From: an uncultured Draconibacterium sp.
GTDB lineage: Bacteria > Bacteroidota > Bacteroidia > Bacteroidales > Prolixibacteraceae
Direction of reading: 5' to 3'
Length of the DNA stretch: 64,000 nt
Assembly (NCBI GenBank): GCA_963662825.2
Contig: CAXXTY010000001.1
Coordinates: forward strand, 739,884-803,883
Of this stretch, positions 35,292 through 38,538 are shown one piece after another. Positions within the stretch are counted from its first letter, which is position 1. Every line of letters begins with the position of its first letter. The notes under the pieces were generated by a model that saw only the letters and a program-made list of their open reading frames with translations, was not told where the DNA came from and made no database searches. The position numbers and the translations under genes are program-made.

Positions 35292-35326
35292 CATTGACAG
35301 CACTTTAAACTTTCAACTTTTCCTTG

Positions 35327-35334
35327 TACATTTG
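35327..35334 (+). promoter_or_regulatory. Candidate -7 box (TACATTTG) of the valS promoter
   Basis: Matches TAnnTTTG, 39 nt upstream of the valS ATG. I saw no clean -33 TTTG. Confidence 0.35.
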
Positions 35335-35372
35335 CACCTCAAATTTTATTTACATTTCTGAAAGAAAAGAAC

Positions 35373-38300
35373 ATGGAAATTGCGAGCAAATACAATCCGG
35401 CCGAAGTTGAAAACAAATGGTACAAATACTGGACGAAAAACAAGTATTTTCATTCTGAACCCGATGAACGTGAACCGTATACCATTGTTATTCCGCCTCC
35501 GAATGTCACGGGAGTACTGCACATGGGGCACATGCTCAACAATACCATTCAGGATATTCTGGTTCGCCGTGCCCGAATGACGGGTAAAAATGCCTGCTGG
35601 GTTCCGGGAACCGACCACGCATCGATTGCCACCGAAGCCAAAGTGGTAAATAAACTTCGCGACCAGGGAATAGACAAATACGATCTTTCGCGCGAAGAAT
35701 TTCTGAAACATGCCTGGGAATGGACCGACAAACACGGCGGTATTATTCTGGAACAGCTGAAAAAACTTGGCGCTTCCTGCGACTGGGACCGCACTGCATT
35801 TACTATGGACGAAGCACGCAGCGAATCTGTTATCAAAGTCTTTATCGATTTGTTCAACAAAGGATTGATTTACCGCGGTGTTCGTATGGTTAACTGGGAC
35901 CCCGCTGCAAAAACAGCTCTTTCCGACGAAGAAGTGAATTACAAGGAAATGCAGGGAAAACTGTATTACCTGAAATATAAAATAGAGGAAGCCCCCCTTA
36001 ATCCCCCCGAAGGGGGGAAAAAGAATCCCCTGTACCAAACAGCACGTAAATCGGAATATGAATTATTAAAAAAGAATGCCAAAGAATTACGCCATTTTTC
36101 AACTGAAGCTGAAAGTGCATTGTGGGAAATGGTACGTGCAAATAAATTGGGTGAAAAATTCAGAAGACAACATATTATTAATGATATAATTGTTGATTTT
36201 GTATGTCTTCCTGAAAAGCTTGTAATAGAAGTTGATGGGGGTTATCACAAGAATCCTGAAATTCAAAATCTGGATATATTGAAAACTGATATTCTGAACG
36301 AATTAGGATATACAGTAATTCGATTCTCCAACGAAGAGGTATTGGGAAATATCGATTCAGTGATACGATCGATTGAAGATGCGTTAAAAAGCTCCCCCTC
36401 CGGGGGAGTTGAGGGGGCTGAGTATATAACTATCGCAACAACACGTCCCGAAACCATTTTAGGCGACACCGCGGTTTGTGTAAATCCGGCCGATGAACGT
36501 TTTGCACACCTTGTTGGTAAACGTGTGCTGGTTCCGCTCATTAACCGCTCTATTCCTGTAATTGCCGATGATTACGTTGATATGGAATTTGGTACCGGTT
36601 GTTTAAAAATTACTCCGGCACACGATATTAACGACTACGAAATCGGGATGCGCCACAACCTGCCTTCCATCGATATTTTTAACGACAATGGAACACTGAG
36701 CGAAAAAGCCGAAATTTTTATCGGAGAAGACCGTTTTGCGGTTCGCGATAAAATTATTCCCGAACTTGAAAAAGCAGGCAATCTTGCCAAAATCGAAGAT
36801 TACACCAACAAAGTGGGCTTTTCAGAAAGAACCGATGTAATTATCGAACCTAAACTTTCGGCACAGTGGTTCCTGAAAATGGACGAACTGGTAAAACCCG
36901 CGCTGGAAAATGTGATGAACGACACCATCAAATTCCACCCGGCAAAATTCAAAAATATTTACAACCACTGGATGGGCAACATCAAGGACTGGTGCATTAG
37001 TCGCCAGTTATGGTGGGGACACCAGATTCCGGTGTATTATATTGAAGCCCCCCTTAATCCCCCCGAAGGGGGAAGTTGGGGTTTTGTGGTTGCGGAAAAC
37101 GAAGAAGAAGCGCGAAAAATGGTGCTTGCTAAACACCCCTCCCTCGGAGGGGAAGGGGGAGGCTTTACCTTAAAACAGGACGAAGACGCGCTCGATACCT
37201 GGTTTTCGAGCTGGCTGTGGCCTATTTCTGTTTTCGACGGAATCCGTTATCCTGAAAACGACGAAATAAAATATTACTATCCTACTTCGGATTTGGTAAC
37301 TGCGCCCGATATTATTTTCTTTTGGGTAGCCCGGATGATTATTGCCGGTTACGAATACCGTAACGAATTCCCGTATAAAAATGTGTATTTCACCGGAATG
37401 GTTCGTGATGCACAACGCAGGAAAATGTCGAAATCGCTGGGTAATTCGCCTGATCCGCTCGATTTGATTGCCAAATACGGAGCCGACGGCGTTCGCGTGG
37501 GAATGTTACTTTGTTCTCCTGCCGGTGGTGATTTGCTTTTCGATGAAGGGCTGCCACAGCAAGGAGCAGGTTTTGCAACAAAAATATGGAATGCTTTCCG
37601 ACTGGTAAAAAACTGGGAAGTTTCTTCAGAAATTGAACAACCGGAACATTCAAAACTGGCCATCGAATGGTTCAGAAATAAATTAAGTGAAGTTGTTTTC
37701 ACCTTAAATAATCAATTTGATCAGTTCCGTATTTCGGAAGCGTTAATGACTGTTTACACCACAGTTCGCGACGAATTTTCGGGTTGGCTGCTTGAAGTTG
37801 TAAAACCGGCGTACCAACAACCCATTGATGCAAAAACGTATGCTGAAGTTGTTGAACTTTTCGACCAGATGCTGCGGCTGATGCACCCGTTTATGCCGTT
37901 TATTACTGAAGAAATCTGGCAAATGCTGACCGACAGAAAAGAAGGTGAAAGTATTATGATCAGCCAGCTTCCAAAAGCCGAAACATTTGATGCCGATTTA
38001 CTGGCTGCATTTGAAAATGCAAAAGAGGCGATTTCAGGAATTCGTAAAATTCGCACCGACAAAAATATTCCGAACAAAGACACACTTGCTTTAAAAGTTC
38101 AGCAGGGCGACAAAGGTTTTGAACCTCAATTCAACAGTGTTGTACTAAAAATGGCCAATCTTTCGTCGCTCGAAATGGTAAACGAGGAAGTAAAAGGCGC
38201 CTCTTCATTTTTGGTAAAATCAACCAATTTTTATATTCCGCTCGAAGGATTTATTGATGTTGAAGAAGAATTGAAAAAACTTCAGGAAGAACTAATTTAT

Positions 38301-38456
38301 ACACAAGGGTTTCTGGCTTCGGTTATGAAAAAACTGAGCAACGAAAAATTTGTCAGCGGTGCGCCGGCAGCGGTAGTTGATAAAGAACGCGCCAAACAAG
38401 CCGACGCCGAAGCCAAAATAAAAGTATTGGAAGAAAGAATCGCCGGGTTAAAATAG
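35373..38456 (+). CDS. valS: Valine--tRNA ligase carrying three in-frame repeat-element insertions
   Basis: 1027 aa. Class I motifs HMGH and KMSKS, TTRPET editing-domain motif, C-terminal coiled coil. It is about 165 aa longer than expected because of the inserts at 35991-36419, 37047-37082 and about 37134-37163. Confidence 0.95.
35991..36419 (+). mobile_element. 429-bp GC-hairpin-bounded element encoding a DUF559 (Vsr-like PD-(D/E)xK) endonuclease domain, inserted in frame in valS
   Basis: Left end GCCCCCCTTAATCCCCCCGAAGGGGGG. Reverse complement of the right end AGCCCCCTCAACTCCCCCGGAGGGGGAG. The interior is visibly AT-richer and encodes [43 protein letters not shown]...[13 protein letters not shown]. 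At 143 codons exactly, it has no internal stop and no start codon of its own. Confidence 0.75.
37047..37082 (+). repeat. Solo miniature copy of the same GC-rich palindromic element, in frame in valS (encodes [12 protein letters not shown])
   Basis: GAAGCCCCCCTTAATCCCCCCGAAGGGGG (37044-37072) is identical over 29 nt to 35988-36016. It is followed by AAGTTGGGG, which resembles the right-end arm GAGTTGAGGGGG. Confidence 0.7.
37134..37163 (+). repeat. Third GC-rich hairpin repeat in frame in valS (encodes [10 protein letters not shown]), resembling the right end of the element
   Basis: CCCCTCC-CTC-GGAGGGG hairpin followed by AAGGGGGAGGCT. The architecture matches the right end at 36392-36419 (CTCCCCC-TCC-GGGGGAG then TTGAGGGGGCT). 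Confidence 0.6.
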
Positions 38457-38461
38457 AAAAC

Positions 38462-38495
38462 ACTTTTTCGAATTAGCACTTTGAAAAAGTATTTT
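38462..38495 (+). terminator. Weak AT-rich hairpin terminator after valS
   Basis: ACTTTTTC / GAAAAAGT stem followed by ATTTT. Confidence 0.35.
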
Positions 38496-38538
38496 CCGGC
38501 GAAATGATACAGAATAAATTCTCAGAAGAACAGGGCAA

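Follow-up and report, generated by a model that had tools for sequence, protein, structure and literature searches.

A DUF559 nuclease domain between inverted hairpin repeats in valS of an uncultured Draconibacterium: a candidate mobile element

Ogata and colleagues are said to have described, in 2000, the Rickettsia palindromic elements (RPEs) as selfish DNA residing in frame within protein-coding genes. In the repetitive extragenic palindromic (REP)/REPIN systems, the repeats are extragenic and the associated enzyme, the REP-associated tyrosine transposase (RAYT), is of the HUH/Y1 (IS200/IS605-like) type. Here, we analyzed a stretch of 64,000 nucleotides from an uncultured Draconibacterium sp. 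(contig CAXXTY010000001.1, positions 739,884 to 803,883; hereafter the window), in which valS, the gene for valyl-tRNA synthetase (ValRS), contains an in-frame segment encoding a DUF559 nuclease domain between two GC-rich hairpin repeats. The REP families have been reviewed (PMC3733652), while the function of DUF559 is not established (PMC3424549). The closest biochemically characterized structure to our model of the insert is that of I-Bth0305I (PMC3239194), a multidomain homodimer with a footprint of ~60 bp whose gene lies within a group I intron or adjoins split inteins (PMC3239194, PMC2677866).

We propose that the valS segment is one copy of a mobile, selfish element composed of a DUF559 nuclease gene and inverted GC-rich hairpin ends of ~27-30 nt, and we give this reading a probability of roughly 0.65. 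What the data show is a nuclease-fold domain that is translated and under selection, lies between inverted hairpins with constraint on their nucleotide sequence, varies in presence among close relatives, and belongs to a large Bacteroidota family having both genic and intergenic members.

The insert in valS and its hairpin ends

The product of the window's valS gene contains the Pfam domains tRNA-synt_1, Anticodon_1, and Val_tRNA-synt_C, and its nearest relatives are the ValRS of Prolixibacteraceae (Draconibacterium, Tangfeifania, Maribellus, Mariniphaga, and many metagenome-assembled genomes, MAGs) at 74-89% identity. Insertion-free orthologues measure 875 aa. The features of the gene, by position in the window, are the following:

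35373..38456, + strand: valS (valine--tRNA ligase), a single open reading frame (ORF) of 1027 aa including insertions
35991..36419, + strand: complete in-frame element, with the DUF559 nuclease coding region between a left and a right hairpin end
35991..36017, + strand: left end, with a GCCCCCC terminal C-run, a TTAAT spacer, and a CCCCCC-GAA-GGGGGG hairpin; encodes APLNPPEGG
36066..36386, + strand: DUF559 / Vsr-like PD-(D/E)XK nuclease domain, ValRS residues 232-338
36390..36419, + strand: right end, with a CTCCCCC-TCC-GGGGGAG hairpin, a TTGA spacer, and a GGGGGC(T) terminal G-run
37047..37073, + strand: solo left-type end, placed in the same codon phase in a second loop of valS, where the native 'LPDG' turn is replaced
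37136..37163, + strand: solo right-type end, CCCCTCCCTCGGAGGGGAAGGGGGAGGC, encoding PSLGGEGGG, where the native 'SGN...' loop is replaced

The complete element spans 429 nt, or 143 codons (ValRS residues 207-349), with its junctions at E206/A207 and A349/E350; its 5' terminus is GCCCCCCTTAATCCCCCCGAAGGGGGG and its 3' terminus is CTCCCCCTCCGGGGGAGTTGAGGGGGCT. An earlier reading of this DNA from its letters alone (the sequence-only reading) had pointed to 143 extra in-frame codons with an AT-rich interior, no ATG before the nuclease domain, and no stop codon, and all of this was borne out: the ORF and coordinates are correct, the interior has a GC content of 30-33% versus about 41-56% in the rest of valS, and the stop-free insert is continuous with the valS ORF. 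The window copy also lacks an in-frame GTG or TTG, as well as ATG, from its left end up to the conserved STEAE motif. No in-frame start within the insert is conserved across the valS loci, and in the window there is none before M253. Having no start codon of its own, the nuclease domain can be made only as part of ValRS. When the protein was aligned with the T. thermophilus ValRS (1GAX), residues 1-205 of the latter corresponded to query residues 1-205 and residues 204-338 to query residues 346-478, which places the insert in the 'EVEGGGF' turn, where the connective peptide 1 (CP1)/editing domain begins. This agrees with the site that had been named in the sequence-only reading. The placement is that of the sequence alignment and not of a full-length model, as an AlphaFold prediction of the 1027-aa ValRS (from an alignment of 68 close orthologues) reached a predicted local distance difference test score (pLDDT) of 51.7 and was unusable for placing the domain.

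The DUF559 assignment, likewise a claim of the sequence-only reading, was upheld by the Pfam hidden Markov model (HMM) PF04480, which matched insert residues 26-132 with E=3e-33 and 114.4 bits (cut-off 20.6) over profile positions 3-108 of 109. Pfam reported DUF559 and MTES_1575 as the only domains in the insert, and phmmer matched it to the PDB entry 3HRL (E=4.6e-19). Modeled by itself with AlphaFold, the insert has a confident core (pLDDT 81-94), whereas residues 1-17 and 138-143, the Pro/Gly ends, score <50; just two N-terminal helices precede the catalytic core. ValRS would thus bear an extra nuclease-fold domain on Pro/Gly linkers that are encoded by the hairpin ends and predicted to be disordered. 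In Foldseek comparisons, the model matched 3HRL (E=1e-7, template modeling score [TM] 0.87, 41% identity) and the catalytic domain of I-Bth0305I, 3R3P (E=2e-4, TM 0.81, 27% identity), while matches to Vsr were weak (E=0.15-0.26). The motif residues E247, D275, E286, D288, H292, D301, R317, and N320 are all present in the window copy, and these eight are 97-100% conserved in the 58 valS copies and in other embedded and free-standing copies. Two other assignments were discarded. A Vsr mismatch-repair endonuclease does not fit, as Pfam reports no Vsr (PF03852) and the domain lies inside valS rather than beside a methyltransferase gene. A role as a defense system was dropped, as PADLOC returned merely a weak mREase_II match (E=5.6e-4).

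The DUF559 core evolves as a protein in the valS frame. Across 28 loci, its median nonsynonymous divergence (dN) was 0.126 and its median synonymous divergence (dS) 1.50, with a dN/dS of 0.084, while the host valS had a median dN of 0.109, dS of 1.71, and dN/dS of 0.056. We also scanned one genome per species with the insert as query and found 35 valS loci with an insert at the same site, one of them in the isolate Tangfeifania diversioriginum DSM 27063; the reading frame is uninterrupted in almost all of them. From this in-frame retention and the dN/dS of 0.084 in the valS frame, we can conclude that the insert is translated.

Each end of the element is composed of a terminal C-run or G-run and a 6-7-bp hairpin with a free 3-nt loop. 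As had been noticed from the letters, the two ends are imperfectly reverse-complementary, and both contain a C-run/G-run hairpin of their own. In shuffles of the window, the end motif is expected 0.00 times. All 32 full valS elements share a common plan, with [GCCCCC(C)] [4-6 nt] [C-run, NNN, G-run] at the left, followed by DUF559 and then by [CTCCCCC, NNN, GGGGGAG] [4-5 nt] [GGGGGC] at the right, and the terminal inverted repeats (GCCCCC..hairpin versus hairpin..GGGGGC) are conserved throughout. Stems are perfect in 29 of the 32 elements for the left hairpin (5-7 bp, 11 different loops) and in 31 of the 32 for the right hairpin (7 bp, 7 different loops). A compensatory stem variant, CTCCGCC/GGCGGAG in place of CTCCCCC/GGGGGAG, occurs at two positions in two genomes (the left end at the second valS site of L022 and the right end at the first site of L024), and this double change preserves pairing. 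At four-fold degenerate third positions, pairwise identity was 92% in the left end and 87% in the right end, whereas the DUF559 core showed 47% and the host 44%, and the Pro/Gly codons of the ends are overwhelmingly CCC and GGG, unlike those of the host. Given the constraint at these four-fold sites, a pure linker role is insufficient to explain the ends. When folded as single strands, the ends form hairpins of -6.6 to -8.2 kcal/mol, and the G-run of the left end is able to pair with either C-run. In one uncultured Prolixibacteraceae MAG (L003:4001-4480), two tandem right ends close the element (..TCCGGGGGAGTTGAGGGGGCTTCTTACTCTCCCCCCACGGGGGAGCCGGAGGGGGCT); the valS ORF of this locus stops early downstream, at 802 aa, possibly owing to long-read assembly errors.

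Occupancy and history of the two valS sites

The insert is polymorphic in close relatives, and its history is decoupled from that of the host gene. Among 121 related ValRS, a sample based on the best 120 hits to an insert-bearing query and hence favoring carriers, the first site was empty in 33, held a full insert in 54 (proteins of about 1013-1040 aa), and held remnants in 34. The orthologues include 875-aa ValRS with an empty site, such as those of L171 and L172, whose DNA reads AAA ATT GAA GGT GAA GAT GGT TTT GTA ACC, and that of Maribellus luteus (...AAAATTGAAGGTGAAGATGGTTTTGTAACC...); in occupied genes, the native GEDG loop is partly replaced. The sequence-only reading had set a test of mobility beforehand, namely whether the segment is fixed at this position and whether its ends recur; the site is polymorphic, and the ends recur in valS and in at least 120 contigs. 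On a neighbor-joining host tree built from 566 host-only columns of the 121 sequences, which is shallow, at least 25 changes in the presence of DUF559 are required, and at least 15 between the empty and occupied states.

Remnants reveal that the element decays by in-frame deletion. They comprise two-hairpin units (e.g. APSDSPEGGENSFPFGEGRDGA), solo ends (e.g. P0163), and in-frame internal deletions keeping either an N-terminal piece of DUF559 (P0217) or a C-terminal piece (P0192 and P0236). The window's nearest host relative, L169, has a solo right end that is identical at 30/30 positions to window positions 36390-36419. As some of these valS units keep either DUF559 fragments or an end identical to that of the window, deletion does produce nuclease-less units. 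The two-hairpin unit of L170, in contrast, has a right end unlike those flanking DUF559, so that simple deletion cannot account for it.

The first site holds two DUF559 lineages. Lineage I (the window type) is 78-88% identical within itself and lineage II (the P0164 type) 83-93%; the two are ~60% identical to each other, and each is 45-57% identical to the DUF559 domains of other hosts. A tree of 320 domains does not place them as sisters, although the domain is short and resolution weak. P0130, a carrier of lineage II, nests among lineage-I hosts. In comparisons of pairwise dN over 28 loci, four host blocks correlated with one another at 0.53-0.86, while the insert correlated with the host blocks at 0.02-0.28. 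Mosaic tracts were also found: L026 and L041 are 96-99% identical in the insert and 82-90% in the flanks, and L019 and L034 have the opposite pattern, the insert being less alike than the flanks. In a 4.9-Mb genome of Draconibacterium halophilum, a 138-aa 'endonuclease domain-containing protein' (P0002) consists of the valS insert followed by ...SLQSQLLVLKRFWAIRPYV; by hand translation, this tail is a +1-frame reading of valS, whose frame shifts immediately behind the right end's G-run, which may be due to a sequencing error in the homopolymer or to a genuine disruption of the gene.

Further along valS are two solo hairpin ends that were missed in the sequence-only reading. The 29-nt left end GAAGCCCCCCTTAATCCCCCCGAAGGGGG is found again exactly at 37044-37072 (29/29 to the left end of the first site), and 22 native codons separate it from the solo right-type end. 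Two orthologues, P0236 and P0217, have the left end alone, from which it follows that the two ends at this second site are independent. Its occupancy among orthologues is likewise independent of that of the first site, and the same loop holds different module types in different orthologues. There is no general concerted evolution of the left ends of the two sites within genomes, though the window's two are identical.

The wider family of DUF559 inserts and hairpin units

Inserts of this kind extend far beyond valS. When 1.84 billion representative proteins were searched without a profile, 20,427 DUF559 matches at E<=1e-3 were returned. Among the 147 best near-complete domains, 51 are flanked on either side by 60 or more host residues, 47 adjoin host sequence on one side only (a group that may include fragments and read-through gene calls), and 49 are free-standing. 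Pro and Gly make up a fraction of 0.23 in the flanks of the domain compared with 0.10 in the rest of the protein. Hosts confirmed by Pfam to be split by the domain are LeuRS, IleRS, RecJ, RecQ, MetH, a DegT aminotransferase, SpoIID, a TPR-SpoIIE (SpoIIE/PP2C) phosphatase, a MiaB-type radical-SAM enzyme, and a sugar epimerase, and all taxonomically named hosts are Bacteroidota. The synthetases are struck at corresponding places: the insert in the LeuRS of Mariniflexile precedes ..FTTRPDT, the structural counterpart of the ValRS site, and the one in an IleRS (P0254) precedes WTTTPWT, again at the entry to CP1. A Flavobacterium IleRS also carries an insert, and this locus and that of the Mariniflexile LeuRS share the end architecture of the valS type. 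Several DUF559 lineages occupy each of the LeuRS and phosphatase sites.

The family also has members outside genes. In Prevotella (L164:1441-1960), a free-standing DUF559 gene with its own ATG and stop codon lies between argG and argC, and the same hairpins flank it outside its coding region, where no protein linker is needed. The called start of argC overlaps the DUF559 stop (ATGA), and the argC ORF reads through the right hairpin (..NSLPSGRVRVGVLGAAGYTG), with the result that the hairpin appears in the annotation as the N-terminal part of ArgC.

At least 120 metagenome contigs contain exact matches to the end pattern GCCCCCCTTAATCCCCCCNNNGGGGGG, and the copies that are not followed by DUF559 are solo or two-hairpin units (typically ...PSFGGVRGG), either intergenic or in frame within proteins. 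In nine contigs (L059, L062, L082, L090, L122, L143, L144, L145, and L153), an in-frame two-hairpin unit occupies one and the same position (..IYD..G..[unit]..IDISHL.NG.YF..) of hosts that look like C-terminal sorting domains of the type IX secretion system, judging by flanking residues with no Pfam check. Many of these contigs presumably come from termite-gut samples, going by the sample identifiers. The units at this position may have spread among paralogues or may reflect a hot-spot preference. Single 9-codon ends (APLNPP.GG) are in frame in L071, L092, and L138, whose hosts resemble by eye, again with no Pfam check, a phage terminase large subunit, RibD, and a protein similar to transketolase or the E1-beta subunit of pyruvate dehydrogenase, respectively.

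Several further arrangements were encountered in the protein set. A LeuRS of 1079 aa (P0310) contains DUF559 at 283-384 and also a NUDIX domain (PF00293) at 520-643, after the editing domain, which would make it a case of another, unrelated domain inserted into a synthetase. Three separate stretches of the best-scoring representative, P0241 (377 aa), match the query, which suggests tandem DUF559 domains in one ORF. In one DUF559 subgroup (P0247, P0249, P0251, P0260, P0261, P0262, P0276, P0280, P0282, P0286, P0295, and P0334), the domain has common flanks in different hosts, ..SFAKVWGAH before it and LQGRAGERL.. after it, and these flanks seem to move with the element. A phage vector was not supported, since the only phage or viral contig with the end motif is an unrelated GC-rich one having a single copy, and viral DUF559 relatives are merely distant at <=44% identity. 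Plasmid matches were all <60% identical.

Explanations and comparison with described systems

We infer both the selfish status of the element and the mechanism of its mobility. As we envisage it, the nuclease would break or nick DNA, either at the empty allele or at the hairpin ends, and the element would then be copied in through recombinational repair in a homing-like or gene-conversion-like manner. The hairpin ends would be its cis-acting sites, which would account for their conservation at the nucleotide level, and in essential genes only those insertions that keep the frame and fall into tolerant loops would survive. The proposal in the sequence-only reading of a selfish, frame-preserving element accordingly finds support in the polymorphism and the repeat copies, while selfishness as such and the route of movement go a step beyond them. 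On a broader scale, there is about an even chance that hairpin-bracketed DUF559 genes are an unrecognized class of autonomous mobile elements of Bacteroidota, which persist by being translated without RNA or protein splicing and of which the two-hairpin and solo-hairpin units are non-autonomous derivatives, a PD-(D/E)XK counterpart of REP/RAYT.

A number of observations weigh against this proposal. Mobility and cleavage would both have to be read out of sequence comparisons. DUF559 follows the end motif in just 4 of the 125 occurrences listed, three of these lying in valS and the fourth in a different gene (L158, similar to a PP2C-type phosphatase by its flanking residues), and the hairpin units could therefore be mobilized by something else. 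Within the 64-kb window, no end-type C/G runs of 5 or more occur outside valS. There is no consistent direct repeat that would mark a target-site duplication, and the flanks vary among orthologues. The breakpoints of the mosaic tracts lie inside the insert and the flanks are not co-converted, a pattern for which exchange among DUF559 copies is as good an explanation as classical homing. The nuclease has 110 residues and no evident DNA-binding domain, unlike the multidomain I-Bth0305I. At residue 304 (window 36282-36284), the window copy and 84% of valS inserts have Lys, while Arg occupies this position in 99% of other embedded or free DUF559 domains and in 3HRL; this R304K substitution may be a lineage-specific change of activity. 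Lastly, a fixed homing gene would not usually be under such strong and lasting purifying selection, which could reflect a benefit to the host or selection for a well-folded insert.

The main uncertainty is whether the hairpin units are non-autonomous derivatives of DUF559 elements or an independent repeat family used as landing pads. If the latter, the hairpin modules would be the real mobile units, similar to REP/REPIN repeats or miniature inverted-repeat transposable elements (MITEs) and moved in trans by an unrelated enzyme, and DUF559 would be a passenger or second-tier parasite that either homed into two-hairpin units, which would provide both target and homology arms, or was trapped between modules. 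The low share of end motifs with DUF559 speaks for such an arrangement, most others being short two-hairpin or solo units, as do the solo ends at the second valS site, inserted independently of one another and of DUF559, the different module types that one loop holds in different orthologues, and the deviant right end of L170. We nevertheless consider it unlikely, because the same ends flank DUF559 in all contexts examined (valS, IleRS, LeuRS, and the intergenic Prevotella copy), because clear deletion derivatives of the full element exist, and because no other candidate transposase lies near the modules in the examined loci, for which no systematic search was made. Still less probable, in our view, is that the insert is a domesticated, fixed domain that is no longer mobile and serves ValRS or the cell, for example through nucleic-acid binding or cleavage linked to tRNA or translation. 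A dN/dS of 0.084 at saturated synonymous divergence, motif residues conserved in 58 valS copies, and retention of the insert in at least 54 lineages at one site would all be expected of such a domain; R304K could mark a changed function, and the related synthetases ValRS, LeuRS, and IleRS are hit at the same structural site. However, close relatives with empty sites or deletion remnants keep an intact valS, the distribution is patchy and the history of the insert decoupled from that of its host, one site holds two distant DUF559 lineages, and the same domain is found in more than 10 functionally unrelated proteins and in intergenic DNA. Moreover, a role of the protein only would leave the nucleotide constraint on the ends unexplained.

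It is also conceivable that the insert is removed before the enzyme matures, as an intein, an intron, or a segment subject to translational bypassing. The insert does adjoin a highly conserved motif of an essential gene, as is typical of inteins and introns, and its ends call to mind the mitochondrial bypass elements, which are GC-rich hairpins in AT-rich genes. However, the Pfam scan found no Hint/intein domain, and the junctions have Ala207 and Ala349/Glu350 rather than Cys/Ser ... His-Asn-Cys/Ser/Thr. Similarly, no Rfam family matched 35300-38500 at E<=1, and the nuclease ORF fills nearly the whole insert, leaving no room for a ribozyme. Furthermore, the insert and its remnants are all multiples of three, free of stops, and selected in frame, which would be needless if they were spliced or bypassed. 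Thus, removal appears highly improbable, and the earlier judgment that the segment is neither intein nor intron stands. The chance that the insert is an assembly chimera or a sequencing artefact is close to nil. Nothing specific favors it apart from the error-prone nature of G/C homopolymers and the frame breaks in D. halophilum P0002 and L003, whereas the same insert is present at the same site in >50 independently assembled ValRS and in 33 genome loci, including that of the isolate T. diversioriginum. These many independent assemblies exclude an assembly artefact, and with it the chimera that had been raised in advance as an objection.

If the proposed mobile element is real, it would represent a third route of survival in essential genes besides introns and inteins, that of a tolerated extra domain whose repeats double as linkers, and it would provide a first function for the large orphan family DUF559. 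It would also explain the length polymorphism and the odd 'endonuclease domain-containing' gene calls in synthetases and other proteins of Bacteroidota, give natural maps of insertion-tolerant loops that are useful in protein engineering, and offer a tractable cultured system in T. diversioriginum (with the insert) and M. luteus (with an empty site). The sequence-only reading had called the arrangement unusual and unfamiliar as a described one. We likewise found no description of in-frame or hairpin-flanked DUF559 elements in the full-text literature, subscription journals not being covered, but the arrangement is not peculiar to valS, given the large family in proteins and intergenic DNA. Whether it constitutes a distinct and undescribed class of nuclease-driven element that persists by translation rather than splicing seems to us an evenly balanced question.

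Compared with systems already described, the element resembles DUF559 proteins such as 3HRL (N. gonorrhoeae NGO0050) and the E. coli YcjD type (PRK09767) in its HMM match, fold, and motif residues; those proteins are free-standing and of unknown function, while the copies of the element are embedded and flanked by hairpins. With the EDxHD homing endonucleases it shares a Vsr-like catalytic domain (3R3P), residence beside conserved motifs, and patchy occupancy. Unlike I-Bth0305I, it comes without an intron or intein, as a single ~110-aa domain within a host protein and surrounded by hairpin inverted repeats, and it lacks extra N-terminal DNA-binding domains, the insert having 143 aa in total. 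Like an intein, it is an in-frame, nuclease-bearing selfish element in an essential gene that is translated with the host protein, but it has neither a Hint domain nor splice-junction residues and evidently stays in the mature protein. It is set apart from group I and group II introns by the lack of an Rfam match and by its frame continuity and dN/dS of 0.08 in the host frame over 28 loci. Terminal inverted repeats (TIRs) are a trait in common with TIR transposons and MITEs, although the sole ORF here is DUF559 and there is no DDE or other known transposase.

The REP/RAYT systems have in common with this element GC-rich palindromes that occur singly or as inverted doublets, a nuclease gene flanked by repeats, and repeats that outnumber the enzyme. 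The differences are that the enzyme is a Vsr-like PD-(D/E)XK nuclease and not Y1_Tnp, that the units are often in frame within genes, and that the enzyme gene of the element is found at many genomic and genic sites. The likeness to RPEs drawn in the sequence-only reading, with a nuclease as added cargo, proved apt, as a likeness of behavior and not of RPE consensus sequences. In both cases, palindromic repeat DNA lies in frame in coding genes, including essential ones, and is translated as an extra surface peptide, and its presence or absence varies by orthologue, with further copies here in valS and in at least 120 contigs. Unlike RPEs, which encode no enzyme, the valS element carries a complete nuclease domain, resides in Bacteroidota, and is bounded by GC-rich hairpin ends of 27-30 nt.

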